From a virus (taxonomy: Duplodnaviria; Caudoviricetes), in the IMG/VR virus record IMGVR_UViG_3300005512_002353: DNA of 64,000 bases; one strand, written 5' to 3'. Position numbers and translations under genes: made by a program. This document shows, piece by piece, positions 33,583 to 55,370 of the stretch (its first letter is position 1; each line of letters opens with the position of its first letter). The notes beneath the pieces were generated by a model. It was not told the DNA's origin. It worked only from the letters and a program-made list of their open reading frames with translations, and made no database searches.

Positions 33583-33588
33583 GCCTGG

Positions 33589-33594
33589 TAAATA
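33589..33594 (+). promoter_or_regulatory. late promoter (TAAATA) for the glycosyltransferase / radical SAM operon
   Basis: TAAATA immediately after the terminator, 16 nt before ATG 33611. Confidence 0.5.
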
Positions 33595-33610
33595 TGTGTT
33601 ATAATAAGGT

Positions 33611-33910
33611 ATGGATAATTTAACACAAAAGATCAAAGCTCGTTTTGATCACGAAGCGGCCAAACAGGTTCTTAGTGAGAAATACGAGGGAAAACTACTA
33701 TTCGCACATCAGGGCGGAATGTTCCGTGCCGGACCTGAACTTATCGTGCTACTGAATTCATATGACACAGGCGAAATGGTCATCTTAGATGAATTTGAAA
33801 ATCCCACAAAAGTCACTAGACTTGCCCTATTAGATGAGGCCAAGCAACGTTATCAAGAACAGTTAAATGCTTGGATGGTTGAACTAGCAGAACAATCGAG
33901 ACAACGATGA
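33611..33910 (+). CDS. hypothetical protein
   Basis: 99-aa ORF, SD AAGGT, ATGA-coupled to next gene. Confidence 0.6.
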   Translation: MDNLTQKIKARFDHEAAKQVLSEKYEGKLLFAHQGGMFRAGPELIVLLNSYDTGEMVILDEFENPTKVTRLALLDEAKQRYQEQLNAWMVELAEQSRQR

Positions 33911-34674: not shown

Positions 34675-35452
34675 GGCAGAACAGGGATATCTAATTGTAG
34701 CTCAGGGCGACATATACCACCCGTGTGCCAGGGCACTAGCAAAGTCAATAAAGTATTTTATGCCCTTGGCTAAGGTAGCAGTAGTAGGTGATTGTAAGGA
34801 TGAAATATTTGATTATGAGATAGCATTACCCCATGGTGATCAAGGTGGACTTAAGAATGATTGGCAGATATTTGAAGCCTCACCTTTCCGTCAGACTATT
34901 AAACTAGAAGCAGACATGGTCCTAAATGGTTCAATAGAGCATTGGTGGGCCATGGTAGAAAAGCGTGATGTGTTCGTAGCACAGGGCACCAGAAACTTTT
35001 ACGGACACAAGACCACGGATAGAACTTATAGACGTCACTTAGATGACAATAAGTTACCTGACGTATACAATGCTGTAACCTATTGGAGACGATCAGAATT
35101 AGCCGCTAAATTCTTTGTGACCTGTAGAGAGATTTTTGATAATTGGGATCAAGTCAAACTGCGTAATTGGGATCAACCTGAACCAGACACTGACACTGTA
35201 TACGCATTAGCAACAGTGTTATTAGGTAGAGAAAACTTCTTACTGCCTAGCACACATCCACAGTTTGCACACATGAAAGGTAAGATAAACTTTTGTCATG
35301 GTGAGGATTGGACCAAAGAACTAGTATGGGAGTTAACAGATCGTGGGCTTCGCATACAGACCATACAACAACAAATACCTACACACTATCAAGTCAAACA
35401 ATTTGCTATTGTGTTAGAGGAACACTATGACAGCCTTTTGGGAAGTAATTAA
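34661..35452 (+). CDS. GT-A fold glycosyltransferase (GT8-like paralog)
   Basis: 'SPFRQTIKLEAD', 'PDVYNAVTYW', 'DTD', 'AHMK'; paralog of the preceding gene. Confidence 0.6.
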   Translation: MQAVKAEQGYLIVAQGDIYHPCARALAKSIKYFMPLAKVAVVGDCKDEIFDYEIALPHGDQGGLKNDWQIFEASPFRQTIKLEADMVLNGSIEHWWAMVEKRDVFVAQGTRNFYGHKTTDRTYRRHLDDNKLPDVYNAVTYWRRSELAAKFFVTCREIFDNWDQVKLRNWDQPEPDTDTVYALATVLLGRENFLLPSTHPQFAHMKGKINFCHGEDWTKELVWELTDRGLRIQTIQQQIPTHYQVKQFAIVLEEHYDSLLGSN

Positions 35453-35753
35453 AAATAGGAAACCTGTTCAACAACAGAAGTTTCTAGATGAATATCGTTT
35501 ATATTACAATGATGATGGAACTCCTCGTGAATATGCAAGGCAGGAAAAAGAAGGCAACTACATTGTCATAAGCAAACAGGTGTTTGATGAAAAGAGATAC
35601 GATGTTTATGTTAAAGATAGAAAACTAATCAATCCTAATCGCATCACACAGTATCGTAAACTTGTGCCCAGTGACGAAGGAACAGAAACATTAGCAGATG
35701 ACATTACTATTATAGGTCAAGGACAACGTTGGAAAGTAAAATATTATGACTGA
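35427..35753 (+). CDS. hypothetical protein
   Basis: 108-aa ORF overlapping both neighbours in the operon. Confidence 0.55.
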   Translation: MTAFWEVIKNRKPVQQQKFLDEYRLYYNDDGTPREYARQEKEGNYIVISKQVFDEKRYDVYVKDRKLINPNRITQYRKLVPSDEGTETLADDITIIGQGQRWKVKYYD

Positions 35754-36654
35754 GATTGATGTAGCAGATTTAGACTGTGTATACCTAAGTTATGATGAAC
35801 CTCAAAAGGAAGAGTTTTGGGTTCAGATTAAAAATATGATTCCATGGGCAACTCGTGTTGACGGTGTCAAAGGGTCAGATGCCGCACACAAAGCCGCGGC
35901 CGATGCTAGTAATACAGATAGATTTATCTTAATCGACGGTGACAACATGCCTAGTCCGGACTTCTTTGATCTAACACTAAAACTCAAAGATGAAGACTAT
36001 GAACGTGCAACATTCCGTTGGAGAGCTCGTAATCACGTTAATGGTTTAATGTATGGCAACGGTGGACTTAGTTCATGGACCAAAGACTTTGTTTATAATA
36101 TGAAGACACATGAAAACTCACAAGGTGATGATGAAACTAATGTAGAGTTCTGCTTTGATCCATTGTATTGGGCCATGCACGATTGTTATTCAACTACATA
36201 TCCTAATGCCACACCCTTCCAGGCATGGCGAGCAGGATTCCGTGAAGGTGTCAAGATGTGTTTAGATCGAGGACACAAACCAACTATAAATGAATTTAAA
36301 GATAGAGCCCATAAACGCAACTTAGATAATCTCAACATATGGCACACAGTAGGTCGTGATGTTGAGAATGGTATATGGGCCATGGCAGGTGCTAGACAGG
36401 GAACACTAATGACCATGTTAACAGATTGGGATCACACTGAAGTCCAATGGTTTGATAACTTGGAACGGCTATGGAAAGACATGGAATCACAGGATCCAGA
36501 CGACATAGCAAGAGAGAACGCTAAAGAACTTGGTAGACTAGATCTAGATGTTGTAGAACTAGACCAGGAACAGAGTAAATTTTTTAAACGACACTATAGA
36601 TCAAATTGGCGCAACCAAGGACCCATGGTGAGAGAGATAGACATACTAAAATGA
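35746..36654 (+). CDS. GT-A-like glycosyltransferase
   Basis: 'LSYDEP', 'RVDGVKGSDAAHKAAA', 'LIDGD' DxD motif, 'AWRAGFREGVK'. Confidence 0.6.
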   Translation: MTEIDVADLDCVYLSYDEPQKEEFWVQIKNMIPWATRVDGVKGSDAAHKAAADASNTDRFILIDGDNMPSPDFFDLTLKLKDEDYERATFRWRARNHVNGLMYGNGGLSSWTKDFVYNMKTHENSQGDDETNVEFCFDPLYWAMHDCYSTTYPNATPFQAWRAGFREGVKMCLDRGHKPTINEFKDRAHKRNLDNLNIWHTVGRDVENGIWAMAGARQGTLMTMLTDWDHTEVQWFDNLERLWKDMESQDPDDIARENAKELGRLDLDVVELDQEQSKFFKRHYRSNWRNQGPMVREIDILK

Positions 36655-37721
36655 TTGATGTCAGTAAGTTAGAAGAAAAATATATTTACAAATTAAAGAG
36701 CCTGGTAAGAGGTTCGGATATTAGTAATCAAATTCCTTTTTCTTGTAATGCTCCTTGGAAGAACGTGATAATTGATACTGATTCAAATTGTTTTATCTGT
36801 AGATGTGATGGGTGGTTGCCGATACCAGTTGGACAAGTTCAAGATTTTGACTCAATGGATGATGTGATTAACAGTCCTGTGGCAAAAGAATTACAGCAAG
36901 ACATATCGGATAAAAAATTTACACACTGTGCTGTTGACACGTGTGGAATTACGAGCGGTGATTTAAATTGGGAGACGATGTGGCTACAAATAAGTTTGGA
37001 TGAGAGTTGTAACCTTGCATGTCCAAGTTGTAGGCGAGATACCATCACACTTAGCCAAGGTCCTGAATTTGACAAGAAATCCAAGGACATGGAGAAAATA
37101 CTACAATGGATGGAAAGATATGAAGAGCCCTTACATGTTACGCTGTCGAGCAACGGTGATCCATTGGCCAGCAGAATCATACGTCCGTTGGTTAAAAATT
37201 ATATACCTAAGGATAATCAGACCTTTGAATTCAAGACCAATGGACTGCTAATGAAGAAACATCTCGCTGATAGCCCTTTATTCGACAACATCACTGTCTT
37301 TTCTATCAGTGTGGACGCAGGTTCTAAAGAGGTGTATGAGGATGTTCGTCGCCCAGGCAAATGGGAAGCACTAATAGATAATTTAGAATTTTTAAAAAAA
37401 CACGGTAAGAATAAATTAATCTGGATACAATTTGTAATTCAACAAAAAAACTATAATGATCTAGATAATCTAGTAAGTTTGGTCGAGCAATTTGATTGTA
37501 TGGCTACGATATTCGAGCTCCAAGATTGGGGGACATGGAATTATGAAGATGTTAAATATCCTGACACCTGGACCATTGCCAATGGAACTTATCTAGAACA
37601 AGACGTTTTGAGAAAACAACATCCTAATTATCTTGATGCTATTCAGAATTTAAGAAAAATAGCTAACAATAAAAGAATAAGTTTTTCTCCTATAATAAAG
37701 AATTTAATAAATGCAAAATAA
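36651..37721 (+). CDS. radical SAM enzyme 1 (N-terminal twitch-like Cys domain)
   Basis: CNAPW...CFIC.C, CNLACPSC (CX3CX2C), 'SNGDP' in place of GGEP; ATG at 36651 overlaps upstream stop. Confidence 0.8.
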   Translation: MIDVSKLEEKYIYKLKSLVRGSDISNQIPFSCNAPWKNVIIDTDSNCFICRCDGWLPIPVGQVQDFDSMDDVINSPVAKELQQDISDKKFTHCAVDTCGITSGDLNWETMWLQISLDESCNLACPSCRRDTITLSQGPEFDKKSKDMEKILQWMERYEEPLHVTLSSNGDPLASRIIRPLVKNYIPKDNQTFEFKTNGLLMKKHLADSPLFDNITVFSISVDAGSKEVYEDVRRPGKWEALIDNLEFLKKHGKNKLIWIQFVIQQKNYNDLDNLVSLVEQFDCMATIFELQDWGTWNYEDVKYPDTWTIANGTYLEQDVLRKQHPNYLDAIQNLRKIANNKRISFSPIIKNLINAK

Positions 37722-39135
37722 AGGCGATGAAGTAAACAAGGACTTTAAGTCAAAGTTCTTAAGTGATGCAGAAGTCATGAAAGAACAATTAGACACAGTA
37801 AGTCCTAGCATGTGTTTGGCTAAATGGAAACAGGTTAGCCTACACCTCACCACGGGCATGACTAACTCATGCTACCATCCACCTTTACACCAAATAGATG
37901 TTAAACCATTGGAGTTCCATCCCAGTGCCCTACATAACACAGCACAAAAGAAAACTGCACGTAAGCAGATGTTAGAAGGGCAACGTCCTGAAGAATGTAG
38001 TTACTGTTGGACCATGGAAGACAATGGTAAACTCAGTGACAGACATTATCGCTCAGGTGAACCTTGGGCCGCAGAATCATTTAAAGAAATAGTAGATGCA
38101 TCTTGGGACCAAGATGTTACACCAAGTTATGTAGAAGTTAATTTTAATCACAACTGTAATTTAAGATGCTCTTACTGCTCACCACAATACTCTACGGCGT
38201 GGGAGAAAGAGTCAAACGAATTGGGTGCGTGGCCAACATCAACGCCACACAATGACCCTAAATATTTTCAGGGTAGGAGAAAGCCTATACCCTTCCGAGA
38301 ACACAATCCATACCTAACTGCGTTCTGGGAATGGTGGCCTGATCTTTACCCTGAACTTAAACATTTCCGCATGACAGGCGGAGAACCCTTGATGGATAAG
38401 AATACCTACAAGGTATTTGATTACGTCCTAGCAAATCCTAAACCAGATCTACACTTAAATGTGACTTCAAACTTTTCAGTAGATGAAAAACTATGGACAA
38501 AGTATTTAGATTATGTTAAGAAGATATGTGCGGACGACAATGTGGAACATTTCATGCAATATGTGTCAGTGGACGGGTTTGGTGAACAAGCAGAATACAT
38601 CAGGAATGGCCTGGACTTTAAATTGTTATGGGAACGAGTCAATCAGTTCCTGTTTGAGGTGCCAGAGCGTTCAAGCATAACATTCATCATAACAATGAAC
38701 AATTTAAATGTTACATCAGTTGAGAATCTGTTCGCAGGCATACACGGACTTAGGCAAGTGCATTCAAACACATATCAGCGTGTGTGGTTTGACACACCCA
38801 TACTGAGAACACCTGAGTGGATGCGTATGGACTTACTACCAGAACCATATGTTGACAAACTAGAAAGACTATGGGCTTGGATGGTTAAGTGGCACGAAAC
38901 AGAAGAGACCCGTTTCAAAGGATTCAAGGACTACGAAATAAAGAGACTTGATAGAGATATTGCCTGGATGAGGTCAGGGCAACAATTAGATGTCGAATAT
39001 AAGAATAAACAGAAAGCAGATTTCTATAGATACTTTAGTGAACATGATCGTAGGAGAGGCACTGACTTCTTAAAGACATTTCCAGAGATGTCTGCATGGT
39101 GGAAGGAGTGTGAGCAACATGCGAGAACTCAATAA
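37711..39135 (+). CDS. radical SAM enzyme 2 (N-terminal twitch)
   Basis: CLAKW, SCYH, CSYC; CNLRCSYC; TGGEP. Confidence 0.88.
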   Translation: MQNKGDEVNKDFKSKFLSDAEVMKEQLDTVSPSMCLAKWKQVSLHLTTGMTNSCYHPPLHQIDVKPLEFHPSALHNTAQKKTARKQMLEGQRPEECSYCWTMEDNGKLSDRHYRSGEPWAAESFKEIVDASWDQDVTPSYVEVNFNHNCNLRCSYCSPQYSTAWEKESNELGAWPTSTPHNDPKYFQGRRKPIPFREHNPYLTAFWEWWPDLYPELKHFRMTGGEPLMDKNTYKVFDYVLANPKPDLHLNVTSNFSVDEKLWTKYLDYVKKICADDNVEHFMQYVSVDGFGEQAEYIRNGLDFKLLWERVNQFLFEVPERSSITFIITMNNLNVTSVENLFAGIHGLRQVHSNTYQRVWFDTPILRTPEWMRMDLLPEPYVDKLERLWAWMVKWHETEETRFKGFKDYEIKRLDRDIAWMRSGQQLDVEYKNKQKADFYRYFSEHDRRRGTDFLKTFPEMSAWWKECEQHARTQ

Positions 39136-40267: not shown

Positions 40268-41735
40268 GATACTTTGCATAGGTAACAACACACAAGACAC
40301 TGACGCCAGATGTCAACAAGTTGCTGAGCGATATGATGTGCCGTATCGTGGATTGATCGATTCAGCGCCAGAGTCTATCAGACCAGGATGTTATCACTCA
40401 AGTTATTATGATCTAGATTATTATGATCTAGAGAATCTTACATGCAGTATGGATCTCGTGATATTATTGGATCAAGACATATCCACTTACCCTGATGAGC
40501 ATGGCTTCCATAAGTCGTTAGATCTGGTCAAGTCACTCTCTGTTGACACGATCATTGAGAACACTAACTTGGCCAAACCCCTCGTCTCTGATCTGGTCAA
40601 CACCAATCCAAGTTTTTGCATTTATCCATTTATACAGAAGATGACCTTTGATGAGAGACTACCATGTTGTTTCAGTGTGGGCCACTTGGATTCAAAGACT
40701 AGAAACTTCCCCTCGCTGGACCAGTTGAGAGAACAAATGTTGCGTGGGGAAAAGAACGCTACTGTGTGTTCCTATTGTTACGAGCAAGAGGAAATGGGTT
40801 ATGTTAGTGAGCGTATGATCGGCACCAAGGATTGGTCCTTAAAATATAAGATATACACTATTGAGGATCTAGAAAGAGCGACAGAGAATTATCCGATGAT
40901 GTATTCAGCTGAGATCGGAAATACCTGTAACTTAATGTGTAGGACATGCTCGCCAGAAATCAGCTCATTGATAGAGAAAGAGAATCGAACAATTAAACTA
41001 TACGACTACGATCCTAGATTTATACCACCCAATGGACTAAATCAAATTGACATCAATAAGGCAAGACGGGTCTACATCAGCGGAGGTGAACCAATGGCTG
41101 TTGACGACACTGTTGAGTTCTTGGAGAAGCTGGTCAACAACGGCAAGACAGATATCGAACTACACTTCAACACGAATGCCACGATACTCACGGAAAGATT
41201 TAAGAAATTGATCAAGAACTTCAAGGACGTTAAGTTCACTGTGAGCATAGATTCTTTTGATCAAAAGAACACATATATCAGATGGCCCAGCAGTTGGACC
41301 AAGATCGTTAAGAATCTAGAATATCTGCTAGAGCAAGGTTATTTCGTCATGGTTAACACTGTGATGTCGGTGTATAACATATCCGATCTATCAGAACTGT
41401 TTATCTGGCTGGATCAATATAAAAACATAGCACTGGACGTCTCTGACGCTAAACCCAGAGACGGGATACTGAGTGCATTTATACGACCCGACGCAGAAGT
41501 AATCTTGGAAGATCTTACTAAGATAACTAAGTTAGGGCTCTATAATAACAACAAGGACATACGCAGTGCCATAGATGGATACATCGAATATTTCCGAAAT
41601 CCTAGATCTGATTTGGAAAGACTGCAGGAATTTTTTAATTACAACGATCAACTTGACAAAGCGAGGGGATCTAAATTAGGGGACTACTTCCCTAAATTGG
41701 AACAATGCCGAAAAAGACTAACGAAACAGATTTAG
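40251..41735 (+). CDS. radical SAM enzyme 4 (N-terminal twitch, extra ~115-aa N-terminal domain)
   Basis: CIYPF, PCC, CSYC; CNLMCRTC; SGGEP. Confidence 0.85.
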   Translation: MPMKHKILCIGNNTQDTDARCQQVAERYDVPYRGLIDSAPESIRPGCYHSSYYDLDYYDLENLTCSMDLVILLDQDISTYPDEHGFHKSLDLVKSLSVDTIIENTNLAKPLVSDLVNTNPSFCIYPFIQKMTFDERLPCCFSVGHLDSKTRNFPSLDQLREQMLRGEKNATVCSYCYEQEEMGYVSERMIGTKDWSLKYKIYTIEDLERATENYPMMYSAEIGNTCNLMCRTCSPEISSLIEKENRTIKLYDYDPRFIPPNGLNQIDINKARRVYISGGEPMAVDDTVEFLEKLVNNGKTDIELHFNTNATILTERFKKLIKNFKDVKFTVSIDSFDQKNTYIRWPSSWTKIVKNLEYLLEQGYFVMVNTVMSVYNISDLSELFIWLDQYKNIALDVSDAKPRDGILSAFIRPDAEVILEDLTKITKLGLYNNNKDIRSAIDGYIEYFRNPRSDLERLQEFFNYNDQLDKARGSKLGDYFPKLEQCRKRLTKQI

Positions 41736-43051
41736 AATACAAACGCAGAGTGATTGACATCAAGAGTGACTCATTCTGTGCGGCCAAATGGTATAACGCT
41801 ACCATATGGTTGGGGTCAGGCATGACCACAAGTTGCCATCATCCTTTACCACACAAGATCACTACCACGGAAGTGGAACGTAATCCCAAGGCACTACACA
41901 ATACAGAACAAAAGAAAAAAGAACGTGCCATGATGCAGGCAGGTGAGAGACCTAAAGGGTGTGAATACTGCTGGAAGATCGAGGACATGGGCAAGGATGC
42001 CATATCAGATAGGGTTTATAAGACAGTCATATATGAGGACAAGGAGTTAGACGATGCCTACAATACTAAATGGACACAAGATGTTGAACTTAGAACTTTG
42101 GAAATTGCTTTTGATAGGACTTGCCAGTTGGCTTGTAGTTATTGCAATCCCGCTTTTAGCAGTAGTTGGGTTAGGGACATTAAGTTTAAAGGCAGTTATA
42201 CCAACTTGGTTAGTGACGGCCGCAATCATTTTACTCATACTCACGACAGCAGTCAGTTGTATACTTATGGTCAGCATAATCCTTACATTGAGGCCTTCTT
42301 CAAGTGGTGGGAATCCGATCTACACAAGACACTCCAAGAACTAAGGATAACCGGAGGTGAGCCACTGATGTCGGGCTACACCTGGCAACTGTTAGAATGG
42401 TTCCAGAAGAATAGAGGACAGAGTCAAACACGTCTCGCCATCAATTCAAACTTATCATTTGACAAGGAAAAGATAGATAGACTGATAGAAGGAGCTAAGG
42501 AAGTTGAGCTTGATCTATATACCAGTAATGAGGCATGTAGCACGAAGGCAGAATATATCAGAGATGGGTTAGATTACCAAGTATGGCAAAACAATGTGGA
42601 ATACTTGTTAGACAGTCGCAGACTTAGGGGACTACATGTAATGTGCACCATTAATGCACTATGTTTAACTACGTTGGATAAGTTTTTGAAACAGATAATG
42701 AAATGGAAAGCAGAGTATGGCAAGGACAGCATTAACTTTACCTTAAACATCCTACGCTTTCCTAGTTTCCAATCACCGTTAGTGTTACCAAAAGACATAA
42801 GACTTGGTTATGCCAATAGATTAAAATTATTCCAGGTTGGATATAAGGAATCAATGCACGAGTTTGAGAACAATCAATTAACCAGACTGATAGAATACCT
42901 GGATGTGGTGGAAGTTCCACACTCAGAAGCATTCGAGATGCCCAAGTTATTAAATGATTTTAAACAATTTTATACACAGTATGATGAACGCAGAGGAAAA
43001 GACTTTATAAAAACATTTCCGGATTTAAAGGATTGGTATAATGGCCTATAA
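41705..43051 (+). CDS. radical SAM enzyme 5 (N-terminal twitch; paralog of enzyme 2)
   Basis: CAAKW, SCHH, CEYC; CQLACSYC; TGGEP. Confidence 0.88.
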   Translation: MPKKTNETDLEYKRRVIDIKSDSFCAAKWYNATIWLGSGMTTSCHHPLPHKITTTEVERNPKALHNTEQKKKERAMMQAGERPKGCEYCWKIEDMGKDAISDRVYKTVIYEDKELDDAYNTKWTQDVELRTLEIAFDRTCQLACSYCNPAFSSSWVRDIKFKGSYTNLVSDGRNHFTHTHDSSQLYTYGQHNPYIEAFFKWWESDLHKTLQELRITGGEPLMSGYTWQLLEWFQKNRGQSQTRLAINSNLSFDKEKIDRLIEGAKEVELDLYTSNEACSTKAEYIRDGLDYQVWQNNVEYLLDSRRLRGLHVMCTINALCLTTLDKFLKQIMKWKAEYGKDSINFTLNILRFPSFQSPLVLPKDIRLGYANRLKLFQVGYKESMHEFENNQLTRLIEYLDVVEVPHSEAFEMPKLLNDFKQFYTQYDERRGKDFIKTFPDLKDWYNGL

Positions 43052-45498: not shown

Positions 45499-46792
45499 CA
45501 ACAGACCTGCTACCTTGTGTATGGCTCCCTGGACTCATACTTACCTAAGCCCACAGACTGAGCGTAGGATGTGCTGTGCATCAAGAGAACCTGCACAGAA
45601 CTTTGAACAGTATATAGATACCAAGGCAGGCACAGGCAAGTATATCCCCCTCACACTAGATGAGCATTGGAACAGTGAGCACATGAAGTCAGTGCGTCGA
45701 CGCATGATGGCGGGCGAAACCCTGCCGGAATGTGACGTGTGTAATAGCAAGTTATTGAATACTGACGTTTACCGAACATATTTTGATCACCTATTCTCCA
45801 GTAAATACTATAGTAAGATTTGGGACACAACGGACGAGACAGGTTACACCACAATGAAGCCTGTTAGTTGGGATTACAGGTTCACCAATTTATGTAATTT
45901 CAAATGCCGTATGTGTGGGGATATGTTATCCAGTGCTTGGGAATCAGAACAACGTAAGCATGGGATGATAGATTTTAAAAATCCCAAAAATAATTGGATG
46001 GTGCCTGCAGTGCGTGATGAAATATCTAAGTTTCAAGACACGCAAATAGAGCAGGAGTTCGCAGACGCAGTCGAAGACCATAGAGTCGAAGAGATATACT
46101 GGGTAGGCGGAGAACCGTTGATGTATGAGCAACACTGGCGATACATGCAACGCATCATTGAATTAGGAGATGGACCAAATGTTTATGCTCGATACAATAC
46201 CAACCTCAGCCGTGTTGATTATAGAGGCTGTAATCTTTATACTGATATCCTTAGCAACCTACGCGATTGGCAGATATGTGCGTCAATCGACGGAACAGGA
46301 GCGATTGGAGAATATATTAGGACGGGTCTCAACTACAATTCTTGGCTTGAGAATCTCGATCAGGGAATTGAGAACGCAGTTCATAGAAGACAGATTCGAC
46401 TGGACTTCACGCTCACACTCCCTGGATTATTCGAAGTTGAAAATATCCAAGAACTTGCGAGAGAAAAAGGAGTAGACATCCTGGCCAAAGTGGTGTTTGG
46501 GTTTACCCCAGACATCATCATGAGCCCACTCGCACTTCCAAGATCCATATTACATCCATGGCTCGATGAACTAATACCTCGCAGTCAAGGAGCCATGCGT
46601 GATATATTACTGCAACTAAAAACAAGACCTACATTTGAAGAACAGTTTCCTGACACATGGCAACAGGCTCTGATTGACGGTAAGAATCGTATGCTACAGT
46701 TAGAGGTCATAAGAAAAGATACATATACCATGCGTGACATATTAAGTAATAGAACAGACGCATTAGAATGGTGGGATGACATTGGAAGTTAA
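45485..46792 (+). CDS. radical SAM enzyme 8 (N-terminal twitch)
   Basis: CMAPW, MCC, CDVC; CNFKCRMC; VGGEP. Confidence 0.88.
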   Translation: MNEPNNRPATLCMAPWTHTYLSPQTERRMCCASREPAQNFEQYIDTKAGTGKYIPLTLDEHWNSEHMKSVRRRMMAGETLPECDVCNSKLLNTDVYRTYFDHLFSSKYYSKIWDTTDETGYTTMKPVSWDYRFTNLCNFKCRMCGDMLSSAWESEQRKHGMIDFKNPKNNWMVPAVRDEISKFQDTQIEQEFADAVEDHRVEEIYWVGGEPLMYEQHWRYMQRIIELGDGPNVYARYNTNLSRVDYRGCNLYTDILSNLRDWQICASIDGTGAIGEYIRTGLNYNSWLENLDQGIENAVHRRQIRLDFTLTLPGLFEVENIQELAREKGVDILAKVVFGFTPDIIMSPLALPRSILHPWLDELIPRSQGAMRDILLQLKTRPTFEEQFPDTWQQALIDGKNRMLQLEVIRKDTYTMRDILSNRTDALEWWDDIGS

Positions 46793-47879
46793 AGTTACTC
46801 TACGTGATCCATTGGATAAACAAGATACTTTAGATTACTATATAGTTTCTAACGACACACAGTTAGCCAAGGACTGGATTCAGGCATTAAAAGAAATACT
46901 ATCAAGTAATTTAACTTTACAAAAAGATTTTTGCTTTTTAGGTTTTCCTAATTCAGCAAGAACAATAGAATATATTTGTAACGAATTAAATCATGCTGTA
47001 AAAACTATTAACAGTTATGACTTTACTCAGCACGGGTTAAATCCTTATATCATTGAAGAATATTTTACACCCGATTCGGTAAGATTTAGTGAAGACTTAT
47101 ATCCAGTAGGTCCCACTGGCAACGATGCAGTTGATAGTCCAAATGATCTTGGATTAAGAATAAAACATTCTATAATGAATCAACTACACAATCATTTTGA
47201 GGTATTAGAAGGCACAGTAGAACACCCAAGCCCATACGGACAGAATGCACCTGCTGATGTTAGACGAGCAATTGGACAATTGAACTATAACTGTCATGAA
47301 TTAGAAAGTCTGATACTAAGCCAACGAAAATACAAAGTAACACCAGAGTGGGTTAGGCCAAGTCAGATAACAACGTTTGAATCTTGTAAACGATATGATT
47401 TAACAGATGAACATAGACAAGGGTTTATTGATAATAATTATGATAGACAGTTTGGCCATGTCTACATGCACTGGACACAGATAGGCAAAACTTTATTTGA
47501 AGTGTTCCGTGATGAAGGCGCACCAGACTTAGATGAAGCAACCTGTGAAGCAATAACACATCTTAGATATTACTCTGGCGAATTTGATGTGGAATGGGCA
47601 AAGTCTGTTACCAAAGACAGTAATTATAGTTGGCACAACGATGAGCAGTTGCGTTTTGAAAATTGGTTATTGAAACATGGATTGGATCCTCGAGACCCTA
47701 AACTTAGTTTAGGCTATCTACACTTGGGTAAAGTAGACCTATTACGTAGTTTTGGCACAGAGGATATGTTTGAAGTTTGGAATCAGGTAGGATCACACTT
47801 AGATATATACAGTATCGAAGTTGATGGTATTAAACAAGTATTTGATTATTGTTGGAGTGATAAAAATGAAATGGATTAA
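46776..47879 (+). CDS. hypothetical protein (His-containing 'NQLHNHFE' and 'CHELE' motifs, possibly metal-binding)
   Basis: 367-aa ORF coupled to the radical SAM array. Confidence 0.6.
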   Translation: MTLEVKVTLRDPLDKQDTLDYYIVSNDTQLAKDWIQALKEILSSNLTLQKDFCFLGFPNSARTIEYICNELNHAVKTINSYDFTQHGLNPYIIEEYFTPDSVRFSEDLYPVGPTGNDAVDSPNDLGLRIKHSIMNQLHNHFEVLEGTVEHPSPYGQNAPADVRRAIGQLNYNCHELESLILSQRKYKVTPEWVRPSQITTFESCKRYDLTDEHRQGFIDNNYDRQFGHVYMHWTQIGKTLFEVFRDEGAPDLDEATCEAITHLRYYSGEFDVEWAKSVTKDSNYSWHNDEQLRFENWLLKHGLDPRDPKLSLGYLHLGKVDLLRSFGTEDMFEVWNQVGSHLDIYSIEVDGIKQVFDYCWSDKNEMD

Positions 47880-47967
47880 AAATTTAATTAATAAGATTAA
47901 ATTAGAGATACGGTATCGAAAAAAATTAAAAGAACTCAAAAAGCGTGATCCGTTTATATATAAATGA
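47866..47967 (+). CDS. 33-aa basic peptide ending in DPFIYK
   Basis: Not in ORF track; MKWIKNLINKIKLEIRYRKKLKELKKRDPFIYK*, fills the gap exactly and is ATGA-coupled to 47964. Confidence 0.7.
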   Translation: MKWIKNLINKIKLEIRYRKKLKELKKRDPFIYK

Positions 47968-48146
47968 GTAACAATATAGAAAGTCCTTGTATAGGAGTTT
48001 GCTCAGTAAATCCCAACACAGGGTATTGTCATGGGTGTTCACGGACACAAGAAGAAATGGACAGTTGGTCGACAATGTCTGATAAAGAAAAAATAAAATT
48101 AATTAACGAATTAGAAAAAAGACAAGATGAGTTATTTGGGGATTAG
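47964..48146 (+). CDS. DUF1289-like small Cys-rich (putative Fe-S/Zn) protein
   Basis: 'SPCIGVC...CHGCSRT.EE...W' pattern. Confidence 0.75.
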   Translation: MSNNIESPCIGVCSVNPNTGYCHGCSRTQEEMDSWSTMSDKEKIKLINELEKRQDELFGD

Positions 48147-49620
48147 TGCAGGCTTCCATGACGCTAGTATAAGTGTTGTAGACTACGACGGTTCGATTAA
48201 ATTTGCTGGACATGCAGAACGTTATTCAAAACAAAAGAATGATCGTAGCCTAAACACTGATATATTTTATGATGCCTACAACTACACGAATAAGATTACT
48301 CATATTGCCTACTACGAAAAACCTCTACTAAAACAGTTACGTAATTGGCGTTCAGGTATGAAGTTTGATTGGCGCCGTGTAACAACAATGCAGGCCATTG
48401 ATCGAGAAATTCCTCCACGTGCTAGAAGACTAATAGGCACAGGCATACCTTTTTCAAGTTATCATCATCACAAAAGTCATGCGGCCGCTGGCTTTCAAAC
48501 ATCACCATATGATGATGCTACAGTTGTAGTCGTTGATGCTATAGGTGAGTTTGATACTATATCAATTTGGTCAGCACACTATGACCGCAAAGGCTGTGCC
48601 CAATATACGAAACTATGGAGTCAAAAATATCCACACTCGGTAGGATTGTTTTATTCAGCAATGACTCAACGTGCAGGACTTAAACCAAATGAGGATGAAT
48701 ATATCTTAATGGGCATGGCCGCATACGCAAGACCAGACTACAACATGTATGCTGAATTTCTTAGAGATAGAGACGACATAGAATTCTACGATAATCTACA
48801 CGTGGGCTGTGAAGACTACAGACCAGAAATGACAGAGTTTCAAATTGCGGCTTCGGCTCAATACACCGTAGAACAATGTGTTTATAGGATAATGGAGAAA
48901 GCACGTAAACTTGGACAGAGTAAAAATTTAGTTTACATGGGGGGAGTTGCCCTCAACTGCTCAGCAAACGAGCAACTAGGTAACTATTTTGAAAATATCT
49001 GGATCATGCCCAATCCAGGTGATGCAGGTTCAAGTCTAGGAGCCGCGGCGTTAGCATACGGTAAACAAGTAGAATGGTCACATCCATACTTAGGCACTAA
49101 CATAGAAGGATCATATCCTGTTAATCAGCTACTAGATGAATTGCTTGGTAATAAGATAGTTGGAGTGGCCAGTGGACGTGCAGAGTTTGGACCTAGAGCC
49201 TTAGGCAATAGATCATTACTAGCAGATCCTAGAGGGCCTGAGATAAAGGACAAAGTAAACGAAATCAAACGTAGGCAGAAGTTCCGTCCATTTGCTCCTG
49301 TAATAATGGAGGAGTATGTTGATCAATATTTTATGATGCCAAAAGGATTTCCAACATCACCATATATGCAGACTACTGCTACTTGTAAGAAACCAAGTGA
49401 ATTTCCTGCAGTCATACATCAAGATGGGACCAGCCGTGTGCAGACTGTGAGTAAGGATTGTGGTAGCGGCATTAGACAACTATTAGAAAAATGGTTTGTG
49501 TTAACAGGCTGTCCTATGTTATTAAATACTAGCCTTAATATCAAAGGTGAGCCGATGGTTAATGATAGAGTAGATGCTGATCGTTTTGAAAAATATTATG
49601 GCGTTAAAGTAATATCATGA
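48127..49620 (+). CDS. carbamoyltransferase (NodU/CmcH/TobZ family)
   Basis: 'GFHDAS', 'ERYSK.K', 'HHKSHAA', 'DAIGE', 'GGVALNC', 'EFGPRALGNRS', 'FRPFAP', 'DGTSRVQTV', 'LNTSLN.KGEP'. Confidence 0.93.
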   Translation: MSYLGISAGFHDASISVVDYDGSIKFAGHAERYSKQKNDRSLNTDIFYDAYNYTNKITHIAYYEKPLLKQLRNWRSGMKFDWRRVTTMQAIDREIPPRARRLIGTGIPFSSYHHHKSHAAAGFQTSPYDDATVVVVDAIGEFDTISIWSAHYDRKGCAQYTKLWSQKYPHSVGLFYSAMTQRAGLKPNEDEYILMGMAAYARPDYNMYAEFLRDRDDIEFYDNLHVGCEDYRPEMTEFQIAASAQYTVEQCVYRIMEKARKLGQSKNLVYMGGVALNCSANEQLGNYFENIWIMPNPGDAGSSLGAAALAYGKQVEWSHPYLGTNIEGSYPVNQLLDELLGNKIVGVASGRAEFGPRALGNRSLLADPRGPEIKDKVNEIKRRQKFRPFAPVIMEEYVDQYFMMPKGFPTSPYMQTTATCKKPSEFPAVIHQDGTSRVQTVSKDCGSGIRQLLEKWFVLTGCPMLLNTSLNIKGEPMVNDRVDADRFEKYYGVKVIS

Positions 49621-50294: not shown

Positions 50295-50303
50295 GGTGGC
50301 ATC

Positions 50304-50939
50304 ATGAAACTCATAGCGTCTGGCTGTTCAGTCACACATGGTGCAGAGTTAGAGCACCCATTCATGAGCCAAGAGAATGCTCAACAGAGTTATCCGGCAC
50401 TGCTGGCTAAGAAGTTAAATCTTGAATGTGTTAATGTGGCTCTCAGTGGTGCCAGTAATGATCACATATTTCATTTAGCAGTTGAAGAACTTGAAAAACA
50501 CAACGATATATCAGTGCTATTGGTTTGTTGGACACACTCGCCTAGACTCACATGGCGTGCTTTTGATAGGACATATATCATACACCCTACATTCGCTACA
50601 GCACTAAAAGATGTTTATCAAGACCCAAGGCATAGGAAAGACGTTGGCAGAATCCATATTTCCAGTGATGCTAACATTCTGAATGAGCTCGAACAGGGAG
50701 TTAAGTTTGCGGTTACCCACATGATTGATTGTGATGAACTAGATCGTAAGCGTGATAATCATAGCCTTGCTCTAAGAGCGATATGTGAGCAAAGACAAAT
50801 ACAATTCATTGAATTAGATGTTATGGATTTTAAAAATGTTGGAAAGTATGACGAAGAGGAAAGACATCCTAATCATGTCGAACATGCTTTAATAGCAGAT
50901 CATTTAATGTCCACTTATTTTCTCAATGGCCTTAATTAG
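50304..50939 (+). CDS. SGNH-like protein
   Basis: 'SGCSVT', 'SGASN', C-terminal 'RHP'. Confidence 0.55.
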   Translation: MKLIASGCSVTHGAELEHPFMSQENAQQSYPALLAKKLNLECVNVALSGASNDHIFHLAVEELEKHNDISVLLVCWTHSPRLTWRAFDRTYIIHPTFATALKDVYQDPRHRKDVGRIHISSDANILNELEQGVKFAVTHMIDCDELDRKRDNHSLALRAICEQRQIQFIELDVMDFKNVGKYDEEERHPNHVEHALIADHLMSTYFLNGLN

Positions 50940-52077
50940 TTCTTCTCGTTTATTTCTTTTAAACCAAGCCTGATTGTGTAAAATGATCGAAGTCATTTCT
51001 ATATGCTGTTTATGTAGATCTTCTAAACTTGTGTCTGCTATTCGTTTAACGGTATCCCAAATAGCTAGCCAACGAAAACGAATATCCTGTTCCTGATCAT
51101 AACTTTCATCTATCCAGGGACTAAATGTTTTATATCCTTGTTCTTGGAGGTATTGTAAACTATTTGTTGTGCCCAGTATAACAAAGGGTTGGCCATATTT
51201 GATTGGCTTAAATGTTTTTTCCGTAAGGAACACGCCGCCGGTAGCATCAAGATAAGTTTCCATAACTACGTTCCAGTAACTATCAGTGAACAAATAATCC
51301 ACACTCAGAGAATGATCATTGTGGTTGTCTGTGTTAAGGTTATCTGCACTCAGAGGTAGCACAGATTCAAACTTAGGTTGAACGAAATCCATGTTTCTTT
51401 TATATCCCAGACACCATAAAAATTTACCATTGGTAACATTATAATCTTCTCTAGTGTCCTTATTAATAACATTACCATAACTCACATAAGCATCTTTTGT
51501 TAAATCGTTGCGCCATAGATTGTAAACAAATTCTTTCCTATACTGTTTGTGAACTCTATTTAAACAAGTGTATTTTTTAGTCTTGCGTTCAAATATACTT
51601 GGTTCGGGTATAACCGTGTTTTGTATTTCAAACAAGTATTCGCTTTCGCAGACATAGGCCATGCCATCTATTTCATTAGCTTTGGTGTTACCACTGACGA
51701 AAAATATTGATTCTCTGTCTATATCGTGTGCTTCACATAGGTCACGTAGTCTCTCGTCTATGGCGAAAGGATCGTCGGGTTCACCATAGGTAAACAATAA
51801 ACGTAATTGTTTGTGTCGAATTTTGTCAAGCACCCTGGGATTCAAGTAAGTAAAGTAGTCACAGTTGAAATCAAAGAAGTATAAGTTGACGTTATACCAA
51901 GCTGAATGATCAGCATCCTCGATATCAACTATGTCATAATTGATACCGTGATTATCTAAGAACTTGTGTAGAGTCATGGGCATCACATAGGGAGCACCAT
52001 ATGCTTGACTTTCGTGTTCTTTTAAGTTAAAATAATTATTATTTTCTATACAAAATTTAATGTTTGACATATTCATA
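50904..52077 (-). CDS. putative glycosyltransferase (GT-B, GT10/exostosin-like C-terminus)
   Basis: 'CLNR...YR', 'VVMET...FLTEKTFKPI...PF' resembles the GT10 TEK motif; start uncertain. Confidence 0.45.
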
Positions 52078-53376
52078 ATGGACATGGGTGGCCATAACGG
52101 TAACCTACAGTATTTAATAAAACGCTTTCCGCATGCCAAGGTTTTGCGTTGGACTACGCATCTTAATTGTATGCGTAAGGCCGCAAAACAATCAAGGACT
52201 AGATCATTTTGGTTAATTGCTAGTTGCTGTGTCTATGATGATTTTGATTTCTTGTGGGAGCCAGTTCCATGGGAACAATATCAAATACACTGTTGGGCCA
52301 GTAAAGATCAAAAACTAGGTGATACATTCTTAGTGCCTACTAGTAAGTTTTTGGAACAAGATCCAGAACGCATAGACCTATATCAGGATGTAAATTGGCA
52401 CGCGGATGGTGTTATTAGAGTGGATCCAGAAGTCGTAAGATACGACGGAGATGACATAATAGAGGCATCTAAGACGCACATAAACACGCCTTACGCCGTA
52501 GTTTGTAAACATTGGACACACGATTACCAAGAACCTCAATTATGGCAAGATCCTTGCATAGTTAACTTAAATGCTAGTAAATCAGCATCAATAGTGCCTA
52601 GGACTGCTACTAGTTATATAGATCAACAGATGTATGACTATCCACATCTATCATCAGACATTATATTACCTGATGAACCTTTGGATGTGGTGTTTATTGA
52701 AAATGGTGAGGTGAATGCAGAAGAAAACTTTGAACATTTACAGCAATTATTACAAGAAAAACCCAATAATTTGCACCGTGTAAGCAACGTAAAGGGTCGT
52801 GTCGCCGCTTATCAGGCCGCGGCTAAGGTCAGTAGCACCCCGTGGTTCTTTTCAGTGTTTGCTAAGTTAAAAATAGATGAGAATTTTGATTTTTCATGGC
52901 AACCAGATTACTGGCAAGGACCAAAACATTACATATTCCATGCCCGTAATCCCATAAATGATCTAGAATATGGACACATGGCCATGATAGCATACAATAA
53001 GAATTTGGTATTGTTAAACACTGCTCGAGGATTAGACTTTACCCTTGATCAAGCACACGAAGTGGTGCCAATATTGAGTGGTGTTGCTAACTATGCAGAT
53101 GATCCACAAATGGCTTGGCGTAGTGCTTTCCGTGAAGTGTTAAAACTTAAATGGATGTTGGAACAACGTGCTGACGTTGAAGCAGAATATAGACTCAAGA
53201 TGTGGCTAATGAAAGGTGAGGGTGAAAAGGGTCAGTGGTCAATGCAAGGTGCTGTTGATGCTGTTGAGTATTATGAAGAAACCAACGGTGACTTTGATAA
53301 GTTGAAACTGAGTTATGACTGGGCGTGGCTTAATGATTACTACAACGACCGGTATGTAGTATCACATAGTCACTGA
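52060..53376 (+). CDS. duplicated GT-A-like protein, paralog of 35746..36654
   Basis: 'RVSNVKGRVAAYQAAA', 'AWRSAFREVLK', 'GQWSMQGA' shared with the 35746 protein; no DxD at the equivalent site. Confidence 0.55.
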   Translation: MFDIFIMDMGGHNGNLQYLIKRFPHAKVLRWTTHLNCMRKAAKQSRTRSFWLIASCCVYDDFDFLWEPVPWEQYQIHCWASKDQKLGDTFLVPTSKFLEQDPERIDLYQDVNWHADGVIRVDPEVVRYDGDDIIEASKTHINTPYAVVCKHWTHDYQEPQLWQDPCIVNLNASKSASIVPRTATSYIDQQMYDYPHLSSDIILPDEPLDVVFIENGEVNAEENFEHLQQLLQEKPNNLHRVSNVKGRVAAYQAAAKVSSTPWFFSVFAKLKIDENFDFSWQPDYWQGPKHYIFHARNPINDLEYGHMAMIAYNKNLVLLNTARGLDFTLDQAHEVVPILSGVANYADDPQMAWRSAFREVLKLKWMLEQRADVEAEYRLKMWLMKGEGEKGQWSMQGAVDAVEYYEETNGDFDKLKLSYDWAWLNDYYNDRYVVSHSH

Positions 53377-54436
53377 TATATTCAACTTCTGTGTCAGTCA
53401 GTTCAGGATAGAAAGGTAAACTCAGAACTCTCCTACTTAGGCTACTGGCCACACTGAGCAATCCAGGATTCTCATAGTGTTGATATGGTTCCATTTCGTG
53501 TAGAGCTCTCTCATAATGTATCTTACATTCAATGCCGTCGTTGTATAGTTTTTCTTTTACGGTGTTCCTGCCGTTGATGTCGATCACAAACTTTTGGAAT
53601 GCGTGATAATTAAAATACTCTTTCCTGATCACTGGACGTATTTCTTCTACGTGTTCAAATGTGTCCATCCACCAAGCGGCGATCTTACGCCTGCGATCCT
53701 GCCATTCGTCAATGTATTTTAGTTTGACCAACAGTTGGGCGGCATCTGCTTCACTCATGCGTGAGTTTGTTCCAACTATGGCCCAATCAGGTTTACCGTT
53801 GTCTCTATACTTGCGGAACCAATTGGCGGCGTCTGGGTCATGAGTAACAATAGCACCACCATTGCCATAGTTGCCTAGATTCTTCATTGGATCAAATGAT
53901 ATCGCTTTCATGACAGGGTTGCTACCGAATGGTTCACTTAGCCAATGCTGGGCGGCATCCTCTACCAGTATCTTCCAATGTGTCTTGCTACCATTGTCCT
54001 TGAACAGTTCTTCCCACACAGGTGAACCATACAGCCCAACGGTGCAGATAGCATGATAACTGTCGTAGTCGGGCAGTTTCTCCATGTCCATAACACCATA
54101 ACTGTCAGTGTCAACTATGATGGGTTCCCATCCTGCCTTGACCCAACTGTTGATGGTCGCAGGATATGTCATCGCAGGCAAACAAACACGTGGAGTCACA
54201 TCCTCGCCAATACCAAAACTATATCTATGATACTCAGCGATCATCTGCAGGGCCTGTGTGCCTGAGTGGACGCATATGACGTGTTCCATGCCTATGCGTT
54301 TGGCCACTTGTTCTTCCAATGCTTGAGTGTAGGGACCGTTCATGTGTATGCCTGAACGATATACCATGTCGGTGGCGTCCAGGATCTCATCTCTGATTGA
54401 GTCGTATTGTTTTCTAAGATTTATAAACGGTATCAT
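53330..54436 (-). CDS. DegT/DnrJ/EryC1/StrS PLP-dependent sugar aminotransferase
   Basis: 'SGTQAL', 'EDAAQ', 'SFDPMKNLG..G.GG' (PLP Lys), 'NSRM', 'LSLPFYP'. Confidence 0.92.
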   Translation of the reverse strand: MIPFINLRKQYDSIRDEILDATDMVYRSGIHMNGPYTQALEEQVAKRIGMEHVICVHSGTQALQMIAEYHRYSFGIGEDVTPRVCLPAMTYPATINSWVKAGWEPIIVDTDSYGVMDMEKLPDYDSYHAICTVGLYGSPVWEELFKDNGSKTHWKILVEDAAQHWLSEPFGSNPVMKAISFDPMKNLGNYGNGGAIVTHDPDAANWFRKYRDNGKPDWAIVGTNSRMSEADAAQLLVKLKYIDEWQDRRRKIAAWWMDTFEHVEEIRPVIRKEYFNYHAFQKFVIDINGRNTVKEKLYNDGIECKIHYERALHEMEPYQHYENPGLLSVASSLSRRVLSLPFYPELTDTEVEYISDYVILHTGRCSNH

Positions 54437-55370
54437 ATACTGACTTCATCCATTCAACATACAGTTGACATCCTTCTGCAAAGTCCACTCCGGGATTGTA
54501 ATCTAGATCGTTACGAGCTCTAGCAATATCTAACCTGCCTCGACTAGGAAAGTTCTCATCTCTGTCCACTAGCTCTATATCCCCCTTGCCCAATAGTTCA
54601 ACTACCTGTTCAGCGGCAAATTTAAGTGTTACGGGACTGTCCTGGCAACGTGTGATGTTATAGATATCATGTTTACAAGTTTTGGTAGCGGCCAATGCTA
54701 TTCCCTGTGCCGTGTCTGTGACGAAGGTAAAGTCCAATATCTCATTGGCACCTCTAACTTCTATGGTCTTACCTCTGAGTGCGTTTAGAACAAACTTTGA
54801 CAATACTCTGTCCTCAACATCACGAGGACCATATACAGCACTGGGACGTATGATGGTATAATCAAAATACTTCTTGTAGTCTTCTACAAATTTCTCGCCC
54901 ATGTATTTCATTATAGCATACTGTCCTCTTGGTTGGCATTCCTGTGTTTCAGGAACACGATCCTTGAAGTCACCATAGACCATGCTTGATGAGATGTAGA
55001 CAAACTTGTCAGCGATACCCTTACTTGCTTCTAGTAGGTTAATTAATCCTGTAGACATAACTTCACTTGCTATGCTAGGATTTTCCTGAACCACTTTCTG
55101 TCTAGGAAAACTTGCTAGGTGTATGACTACCTCTGGTTGGAAGTCCATTAAACATTTTTGGACAGTTGAACGATCTCTAATATCTATTCTTCTGGTAGGA
55201 ACTTGGTTGCGTAGATCACCCTGGCGCATTTGGAACAACTTCATCATTTGGTCCAATGGTATGAAGTCATAGTTAGTCATGGAGTCAATGACCATGATGT
55301 CATGTCCCTGTAGTTGTCGAACAACCTCGTGTCCGATAAAACCTAATCCACCGCTAACCAGTATTCGCAT
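54414..55370 (-). CDS. NAD-dependent nucleotide-sugar epimerase/dehydratase (extended SDR)
   Basis: GGLGFIG, 'SSSMVYG', YxxxK (YAIMK), 'VYGP', 'DFTFVTD'. Confidence 0.92.
   Translation of the reverse strand: MRILVSGGLGFIGHEVVRQLQGHDIMVIDSMTNYDFIPLDQMMKLFQMRQGDLRNQVPTRRIDIRDRSTVQKCLMDFQPEVVIHLASFPRQKVVQENPSIASEVMSTGLINLLEASKGIADKFVYISSSMVYGDFKDRVPETQECQPRGQYAIMKYMGEKFVEDYKKYFDYTIIRPSAVYGPRDVEDRVLSKFVLNALRGKTIEVRGANEILDFTFVTDTAQGIALAATKTCKHDIYNITRCQDSPVTLKFAAEQVVELLGKGDIELVDRDENFPSRGRLDIARARNDLDYNPGVDFAEGCQLYVEWMKSVYDTVYKS

Follow-up and report, generated by a model that had tools for sequence, protein, structure and literature searches.

Glycosylation machinery encoded by viruses has been described in giant viruses and in a few phages; to our knowledge, none of it involves radical S-adenosylmethionine (SAM) chemistry. 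In giant viruses, gene clusters for nucleoside diphosphate (NDP)-amino-sugar synthesis together with GT-A transferases decorate surface fibrils or capsids (PMC10117803, PMC9614988). Mycobacteriophages carry glycosyltransferases beside their structural genes and glycosylate capsid or tail proteins in the cytoplasm (reflected in PMC11256854). On the enzyme side, the radical SAM proteins (rSAMs) of NCBIfam NF033640 (N_Twi_rSAM) form a large family without an assigned reaction, which is massively expanded in phages. Here we analyze a cluster of such genes in a 64,000-nt stretch (the window; coordinates count from its first letter) of IMG/VR record IMGVR_UViG_3300005512_002353, which is part of a jumbo T4-like myophage genome. 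Eight rSAM genes lie in tandem in an operon behind the tail-fibre genes, and five of them belong to a core that is conserved among related phages. We give about even weight to the reading that the cluster builds a glycan in the cytoplasm and tailors it by radical chemistry, with the neighbouring Ser/Thr-rich fibre proteins as its probable acceptor.

The rSAM genes are consecutive (36651-46792) and are arranged as follows.

36651..37721, + strand: rSAM #1, a divergent accessory copy whose N-terminus has a Cys domain (Radical_SAM E 2e-13; SPASM 19.3 bits, below cut-off)
37711..39135, + strand: rSAM #2, core orthogroup, CxxKW...SC(H/Y) subtype of the auxiliary cluster (NF033640 324 bits)
39110-40267, + strand: rSAM #3, accessory (NF033640 273 bits)
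40251-41735, + strand: rSAM #4, accessory, with about 115 extra N-terminal residues (NF033640 236 bits)
41705..46792, + strand: rSAM #5, #6, #7 and #8, core orthogroups (NF033640 298, 386, 335 and 282 bits)

A preliminary description of the locus, made from its sequence, had reported eight tandem rSAM genes here, and this holds: the CX3CX2C motif is intact in all eight and Pfam Radical_SAM (PF04055) matches each of them (E 1e-4 to 1e-15). Three remain just under the gathering score of that profile, but these nonetheless pass NF033640 (twitch domain-containing radical SAM protein; curated cut-off 170 bits). The assignment of all eight to the N-terminal-twitch family can be kept for seven, as #2-#8 score 236-386 bits over the full model length, whereas #1 reaches only 55.6 bits and is a divergent relative. 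An N-terminal Cys cluster, likewise described for each gene, is supported by Pfam SPASM above its cut-off in #6 (residues 33-97; 46 bits against 21.5) and #3 (residues 12-73; 22.2 bits), with scores near the threshold in #1 and #8, and by an alignment showing four or five conserved N-terminal Cys in the rSAMs. Judged by these profiles, the proteins carry an auxiliary Cys-rich twitch/SPASM domain, a putative Fe-S site, N-terminal to the barrel. The extra N-terminal domain of #4 (40251-40598) has no Pfam match.

An AlphaFold model of rSAM #6 (based on 39 sequences; predicted local distance difference test score 90.6) returned only generic rSAM cores in fold searches with Foldseek and VIA. BlsE, DesII, viperin and MoaA tie with peptide enzymes among its neighbours, with BlsE and DesII among the top ones; no single neighbour stands out, and therefore neither a substrate class nor a reaction can be transferred. 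A literature search on the N_Twi_rSAM family, on the N-terminal twitch arrangement and on rSAMs combined with jumbo phages and glycosyltransferases yielded nothing relevant.

Relatives of the cluster were collected through orthologs of rSAM #6 (56-95% identity), which gave 94 viral-contig stretches, of which 80 were kept. The genes around the array that enter this comparison, and those between them, are listed below.

17025..33529, + strand: fibre block (4464-aa giant structural protein, p221, the fibre p450 and the Thr-rich p336)
33611..33910, + strand: p99, first gene of the operon, conserved, no family match
33907-34674, + strand: gtA1, putative glycosyltransferase, DxD/ExD protein
34661-35452, + strand: gtA2, putative glycosyltransferase, DxD/ExD protein, matching phrog_1903 (unknown function)
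35427..35753, + strand: p108, small conserved protein, no family match, present in most relatives
35746..36654, + strand: gtA3, GT-A-like (GT2-like) domain with an invariant DGD and a helical C-terminal domain
46776..47879, + strand: p367, core protein with an invariant C-H-E-x-E and other polar residues, directly 3' of rSAM #8 in 62/63 loci
47866..47967, + strand: pep33, Lys/Arg-rich peptide of 33 residues ending in RDPFIYK, 22/33 positions invariant
47964..48146, + strand: DUF1289 four-Cys mini-protein of 60 residues, putative small Fe-S protein (PF06945 E 1.9e-18)
48127..49620, + strand: carbamoyltransferase of NodU/CmcH/TobZ type (Carbam_trans_N E 1.3e-37, Carbam_trans_C E 8.6e-50)
49617-50294 and 50304-50939, + strand: two SGNH-like proteins, accessory, the first of them with an N-terminal GDS motif
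50904..52139, - strand: p411, from a multi-copy phage family found in the variable slots; may be a GT10-like transferase
52060..53376, + strand: p438, whose C-terminal half is a gtA3-like domain without DxD; next to DegT/SDR in relatives
53330-54436, - strand: DegT aminotransferase (PF01041 E 3.4e-55, 188 bits over 2-358 of 360 positions)
54414-55370, - strand: NAD-dependent SDR epimerase/dehydratase (PF01370 E 7.5e-38, 131 bits; GDP_Man_Dehyd E 7.8e-31)

The order p450fib-p336-p99-gtA1-gtA2-p108-gtA3-rS2-rS5-rS6-rS7-rS8-p367-(pep33-carbamoyltransferase)-p411(-)-p438-DegT(-)-SDR(-) is conserved across this set (rS, rSAM; (-), minus strand). In a tree of 247 non-redundant rSAM sequences the groups rS2, rS5, rS6, rS7 and rS8 obtain supports of 1.0, 0.999, 1.0, 0.91 and 1.0, with rS2 and rS5 as sister clades; the orthologs of rSAM #2 have a median identity of 68%. 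rSAM #1 belongs to a small separate accessory orthogroup found in some relatives only, and none of the 80 loci contains an ortholog of #3 or #4. By tree and gene order, five rSAMs (#2, 5, 6, 7, 8) are thus old, separately conserved orthogroups in a fixed order, while #1, #3 and #4 are accessory; the preliminary description, which had treated all eight alike, needs to be corrected on this point.

Insertions concentrate in three places: between gtA3 and rS2 (43/76 loci; occupied here by rSAM #1), between rS2 and rS5 (57/80; occupied here by rSAM #3 and #4) and between rS7 and rS8 (33/69). Other junctions are tight, with rS5-rS6 interrupted in 3/80 loci and rS8-p367 in 1/63. Their occupants are p411-like, SDR-like, SGNH-like or extra rSAM genes. 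On this comparison the phage studied here has an enlarged version of the five-rSAM core, in which #3 and #4 fill a slot that usually holds p411-like genes, and a variation confined to three fixed slots looks like the pattern of a diversifying surface-glycan locus. The same five-enzyme core is, on the evidence of these loci, recurrent in a large clade of environmental phages. Near-identical DNA was absent from the 50,697 phage records searched (megablast of the rSAM array, 0 matches).

The link with fibre genes, which had been proposed together with synteny across relatives, was found in every informative locus: p450fib and p336 lie 5' of the cluster in 31/31 loci with a visible upstream flank, and p99 is present in all 31 as well. 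It extends to the cultured Ralstonia phage RsoM2USA, in which a reduced version (p99-gtA1-gtA2-gtA3-rSAM) follows homologs of the giant protein and the fibre. The giant protein homolog of RsoM2USA, ORF361, has been detected in virions by mass spectrometry (PMC8504454). In the window the giant open reading frame (ORF) of 4464 residues (17025-30419) contains a T7 tail-fibre N-terminal domain, FG-GAP and CBM_5_12 domains; it is followed by p221, by the 450-residue p450 with a C-terminal chaperone-type domain and by p336, in which Ser and Thr make up 26% of the 336 residues. The block as a whole matches tail-fibre PHROGs and Peptidase_G2/IMC.

Support for the transferase-like proteins differs from gene to gene. 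Among the non-rSAM genes, gtA3 is the most conserved. It has a probable GT-A-like fold (with PBCV-1 A64R and Mimivirus R655 among the fold matches), and in public metagenomes it accounts for no fewer than 8000 sequence clusters, none of them named. The gtA1 and gtA2 families are paralogs of each other (hhalign 98.8%) with invariant acidic pairs (D83/D85 and E83/D85), but no relation of gtA3 to gtA1 was detected. Neither gtA1 nor gtA2 has Pfam, PDB or GT8 support; alignment with the Escherichia coli GT8 enzymes WaaJ/WaaO gives probabilities of 3.8% and 0.2% (hhalign), and only the DxD strand aligns. Of the three GT-A-like glycosyltransferases named in the preliminary description, gtA3 is the one with a probable GT-A-like fold.

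The further glycosyltransferase-like pair named there comes down to a weak GT10 lead for p411 and a gtA3-like domain without DxD for p438. Residues 206-401 of p438 align with gtA3 (hhalign 96.5%, E 9e-10). The protein looks like a duplicated gtA3-type domain. As its C-terminal copy has no DxD, it may be an altered or non-catalytic paralog acting alongside the active transferase. p411 belongs to the commonest slot insert (107 distinct copies across the 80 loci), and in the Atlas the named clusters closest to it are Glyco_transf_10, at values (0.79-0.80) that chance often produces. There is no Pfam match among 25 members of the family and no real PDB match; TAL-effector matches from a profile search against PDB sequences were rejected as repeat artefacts. 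For p367 no match was found in Pfam, NCBIfam, PDB or the Atlas, nor any longer fused form. Profile searches against PDB sequences gave nothing real for gtA1, gtA2, gtA3, p367 and p411, and no curated threshold was exceeded by the three GT-A-like proteins, the two SGNH proteins, p367, p411 or p438. Apart from gtA3, the glycosyltransferase and SGNH labels come from sequence motifs or weak matches.

The carbamoyltransferase is well identified, as previously described: Carbam_trans_N scores 130.5 bits (cut-off 24) and Carbam_trans_C 169 bits (cut-off 27). It is not NodU itself, because the NodU equivalog scores 143.6 bits against a cut-off of 1000. pep33 is the most conserved gene of the cluster, above any enzyme, and occurs in 40/43 loci with a carbamoyltransferase against 1/11 loci without. 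It contains no Cys, Ser or Thr and has no Pfam match. We read it, from this co-occurrence, as a predicted partner of the carbamoyltransferase; its tail may resemble that of the small PFIY-tailed proteins (SxtK/DUF5989-like) beside bacterial carbamoyltransferases. Since pep33 tracks the carbamoyltransferase and not the rSAMs, it is not a precursor of the type found with ribosomally synthesized and post-translationally modified peptides (RiPPs), and its candidacy as an rSAM substrate was dropped. The DUF1289 gene sits between pep33 and the carbamoyltransferase gene, overlaps both and occurs in 3/80 related loci; its product may be a small Fe-S or electron-transfer accessory.

The label of two SGNH proteins could be kept only in a loose sense. 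The second matches Lipase_GDSL_2 (18.2 bits against 32.9) and DUF6071 (18.9 against 27) below threshold, the first has the GDS motif but no GDSL/SGNH profile match, and the pair has no PDB match. Both are distantly paralogous to the DUF6071 gene at 59505-60161, and relatives rarely have them. The families of the DegT aminotransferase and the NAD epimerase that were said to follow the cluster are clear, and the two genes overlap by 23 nt, as an NDP-amino-sugar pair; no NCBIfam equivalog cut-off is reached by either. They lie on the opposite strand, however, behind a sigma70-type promoter (TTGACA-N17-TATAAT near 56330-56360, just 5' of the gene starting at 56325 on the - strand). A flavin-dependent thymidylate synthase gene, thyX (56363-57019, - strand; PF02511 E 1e-46), sits just 5', in transcription order, of this promoter, which heads a unit of small ORFs, SDR and DegT.

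Two elements frame the start of the operon.

33552..33577, + strand: intrinsic terminator closing the structural (fibre) operon (11-bp stem, 5 GC pairs, T-run)
33588..33605, + strand: promoter region, in which GTAAATA (33588-33594) abuts an extended -10 box TGnTATAAT (33597-33605); the ATG is at 33611

From 33611 to 50939 there are 19 ORFs, all on the + strand and including genes of 33 and 60 codons; at 17 of their 18 junctions neighbours share 4-31 nt, and a 9-nt gap separates the final two. They form one overlapping operon 3' of a strong terminator, in agreement with the terminator and translationally coupled run described before, and an equivalent hairpin lies 5' of the first cluster gene in many relatives.

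The preliminary description further called the cluster late-expressed and used its late-type promoter as an argument for a virion target. Neither statement could be maintained. ATAAATA occurs five times in the window against 19.7 expected (a four-fold depletion), at 7114-7120, 13189-13195, 13600-13606, 30423-30429 and 31107-31113, and four of the five sites lie just 5' of + strand structural genes; from this distribution it is evidently the late-promoter box of the phage, avoided elsewhere in the window. The operon has GTAAATA, one mismatch away, directly next to a perfect extended -10 box that ends 5 nt ahead of its first ATG. Among relatives, TAAATA is found 5' of p99 in 4/49 and the full ATAAATA in one only, whereas 25/48 have a -10-like box within the last 26 nt, 10/48 a TGn-extended -10 and 10/48 TTGAC[AT] at -35 distance. 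Before internal genes the TGn-extended box is essentially absent except at p367 (5/54), and TTGAC[AT] as well as the unextended -10-like box is clearly rarer than before p99. The most distant relatives have textbook TTGACA-N17-TATAAT promoters ahead of the cluster, a layout shared by early genes on the - strand of the window itself. The consensus of a T4-type late promoter (TATAAATA, read by a phage late sigma) is not conserved in relatives. Going by these motifs, the element that recurs before the operon in relatives is a host-type (sigma70) -10 box and not the late box, and 'late-expressed' is unsupported because the late box is imperfect and rare in relatives while the sigma70-type -10 is enriched. 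Timing in this phage may be early or dual.

Four - strand starts in the window (56325-56370, 59466-59510, 62998-63040 and 7014-7060) have TTGACA-N17-TATAAT 6-8 nt 5' of the ATG and no Shine-Dalgarno sequence. Such a layout suggests leaderless early mRNAs. The same promoter-to-ATG layout precedes the first gene of the cluster, here and in distant relatives.

The gene content, together with the conserved synteny with glycosyltransferase-like genes across the 80 relatives, is best fitted by the sugar-centred tailoring cluster that had been proposed. Gene families, operon structure, the core/accessory split and synteny are seen in the sequences, whereas what follows on the substrate, the radical reactions and the acceptor is inferred. 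In such a pathway the SDR/DegT pair would supply an NDP-4-amino-deoxyhexose, and gtA1-3 with the extra transferases borne in the slots would add sugars. The five core rSAMs and the three accessory ones, each using a SAM-bound [4Fe-4S] cluster and one auxiliary cluster, would then abstract hydrogen atoms, each at a different sugar position, with oxidation, epimerization, deoxygenation or cross-linking as the outcome; these steps are proposed by analogy with rSAM dehydrogenases and epimerases that have an auxiliary cluster. O-carbamoylation of the product would fall to the carbamoyltransferase with pep33, and the SGNH-like proteins may attach or remove acyl groups. The likeliest acceptors would be the Ser/Thr-rich fibre proteins encoded immediately 5'. 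No transmembrane-like segment is found in any cluster protein (the highest 19-residue hydropathy is 1.48), as would be expected if glycosylation took place directly in the cytoplasm; in view of this, and with no polyprenyl-phosphate transferase, flippase or ligase in the cluster, assembly would be cytoplasmic and on a soluble acceptor.

A more specific version is that the five core rSAMs form an ordered line of radical glycan editing on a fibre-bound oligosaccharide, which after glycosyl transfer would carry out a different C-H functionalization at each step (epimerization to rare sugars, keto-sugar formation, deoxygenation or C-C/C-O cross-linking). We offer this tentatively and consider it less probable than the general scheme. 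If true, it would be a post-glycosylation chemistry not described in any virus or cell, and the three variable slots would let phages diversify their coat rapidly.

Several observations weigh against fibre glycan tailoring in general. There is no N_Twi_rSAM with a known substrate, and gtA1, gtA2, p411, p367 and p99 have no verified family in Pfam, PDB and Atlas searches. The commonest promoter in relatives is sigma70-like and not late-type, and co-expression with the fibres is therefore unsupported. Adjacency to the fibre genes could merely reflect a conserved module order. Finally, some members of the family may act on a lipid or acyl substrate, given the acyl carrier protein (ACP), ketosynthase and acyl-ligase neighbourhoods in two Firmicutes.

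These neighbourhoods come from a survey of cellular homologs (27-39% identity to #6), of which 5/7 loci examined lie beside GT2, GT-C or DegT+SDR+UbiA genes; those of Paenibacillus and Eubacterium also lie beside ACP, ketosynthase and acyl-ligase genes. The theme shared by these neighbourhoods would be glycoconjugates, possibly with a lipid moiety in the cellular cases. The cellular N_Twi_rSAM homologs found were mostly from Bacteroidota. Two Firmicutes isolates, Paenibacillus sp. (L095, 9551-17772) and Eubacterium sp. (L094, 5197-14784), have N_Twi_rSAM clusters. One Firmicutes cluster contains an ACP, a FabG-like reductase, two ketosynthases, an acyl-AMP ligase and a GT2, and the other a GT2, a PIG-L deacetylase, a second rSAM/SPASM protein, an ACP protein and an acyltransferase; from their gene content both look like an uncharacterized glycolipid-type pathway.

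If the rSAMs acted on a polypeptide instead, they would introduce epimerized residues, cross-links or oxidized side chains into the adjacent fibre or another virion protein by a RiPP- or anSME-like maturation, while the glycosyltransferase-like enzymes would glycosylate independently. We regard this as unlikely. BlsE, DesII, viperin and MoaA tie with peptide enzymes as fold neighbours, transferase-like genes are intermixed with the rSAM genes at the slots, and no RRE-type domain was reported in Pfam or NCBIfam scans. Nor is there a leader-type precursor, as the sole short peptide, pep33, follows the carbamoyltransferase and lacks the residues Cys, Ser and Thr. With neither a leader-type precursor nor, in these scans, an RRE-type domain, a RiPP-type maturase does not fit, although a leaderless protein substrate of the anSME type is compatible. 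A soluble glycoside, comparable to aminoglycoside or nucleoside antibiotics and made during infection (for instance against competing phages or bacteria) rather than as a virion modification, seems less probable still. The combination of twitch rSAMs, a TobZ/NodU-type carbamoyltransferase, DegT, SDR and transferases is that of such antibiotic pathways, BlsE and DesII are among the top fold neighbours, all cluster proteins are soluble and the promoter is host-type. Yet the cluster holds no exporter or self-resistance gene, the fibre linkage is universal and the slot-wise variability is typical of surface-antigen loci.

The two alternatives already raised in the preliminary description, DNA hypermodification and remodelling of the host surface, have both become weaker. 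Under the former, glycans and carbamoyl groups would be placed on hydroxymethyl-pyrimidines or other bases and the rSAMs would tailor the appended sugar. Carbamoylated 5-hydroxymethylcytosine (5hmC) is known, the promoter is host-type and thyX is nearby on the other strand. Phage GT-A/GT-B enzymes glycosylate 5hmC, and DNA-glycosylating phage clusters are defined by hydroxymethylase or Tet/JBP-type neighbours (bioRxiv 10.1101/2023.12.21.572611). Within the cluster, no hydroxymethylase or DNA-enzyme gene occurs in the 80 loci, and the core carriers G001 (91% complete), G002 and G003 (100%) have no ThyA-family gene; there is also no Tet/JBP match in five relatives, which is weak evidence because the control was silent. 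All in all, we find DNA as the target very improbable. Remodelling of the host envelope (lipopolysaccharide, capsule or glycolipid), by which superinfection would be blocked or progeny kept from re-adsorbing to debris, has the lowest probability of all. It would agree with a host-type, possibly early promoter and with cellular homologs beside GT2, GT-C, UbiA, ACP and ketosynthase genes, which point to membrane-linked glycoconjugates. Against it stand the lack of any transmembrane-like segment and the absence from the cluster of a polyprenyl-phosphate transferase, flippase, polymerase or ligase. Moreover, seroconversion is typical of temperate phages, whereas this phage clade looks lytic and jumbo.

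The placement of the window among jumbo T4-like myophages follows from its baseplate wedge protein (13627-17025), with 31-35% identity to the counterparts of Atu_ph07, CBB, PA5oct, SCTP-2 and Phosso; a baseplate hub, an SbcCD-like protein and further phage families were also found. RsoM2USA and Vibrio phage K566 each have two NF033640 matches above the cut-off, and five large relatives of 316-347 kb have 7-21 per genome (four of these genomes have terminal repeats and are CheckV-complete; the fifth is at 91%). In G003 (the record that also supplied locus L028; 346,856 bp, terminal repeats), G002 and G004 there are 13-21 matches, scattered genome-wide, with about 18 above the cut-off in G003. 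These rSAM gene numbers are far above those of any other virus known to us. Contigs binned into several metagenome-assembled genomes (MAGs) are plainly the same phages. Two such contigs from a MAG labelled 'Haliscomenobacter sp.' (L083 and L084; NZ_JBBAKG010000001.1 and ...003.1; 183 and 148 kb) carry the full cluster, with rS6 at 67-69% identity; they are either mis-binned phage contigs or a hint at a Saprospiraceae/Bacteroidota host.

The number of matches per genome and the abundance of gtA3 in metagenomes mark the cluster as part of an abundant and strongly conserved environmental phage biology. The fixed five-gene core, the defined slots and the reduced version in a cultured phage make the question of its function testable. 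The likely pay-off is new radical carbohydrate (or protein) chemistry, together with a further level at which phage surfaces vary, of relevance to how hosts are recognized.

Compared with known systems, the array shares with NF033640 an N-terminal Cys domain followed by the CX3CX2C barrel (full-length in 7/8 genes), but differs in that five fixed orthogroups and accessory copies are combined in one phage operon, with #1 failing the cut-off. In BtrN, SpeY, anSME, BlsE, DesII, MoaA, viperin, CteB and SkfB the auxiliary domain is C-terminal; in the phage rSAMs it is N-terminal. With the clusters of giant viruses (fibrils of Mimivirus/Megavirinae, capsid of the chlorovirus PBCV-1) the locus has in common that it is virus-encoded, probably cytoplasmic and clade-variable, whereas those clusters have no rSAM arrays and serve in eukaryotic hosts, and the phage glycan and its acceptor are predictions. 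The systems of mycobacteriophages, which are small temperate siphophages, consist of one to few glycosyltransferases and have no rSAM, carbamoyltransferase or amino-sugar genes. With regard to carbamoylation, the SxtK/DUF5989-like partners are hydrophobic, while pep33 is cationic and soluble. The phage enzyme shares with the NodU/CmcH/TobZ systems both Pfam domains and putatively a tiny, extremely conserved PFIY(K)-tailed peptide, which in the phages is co-inherited with the enzyme.

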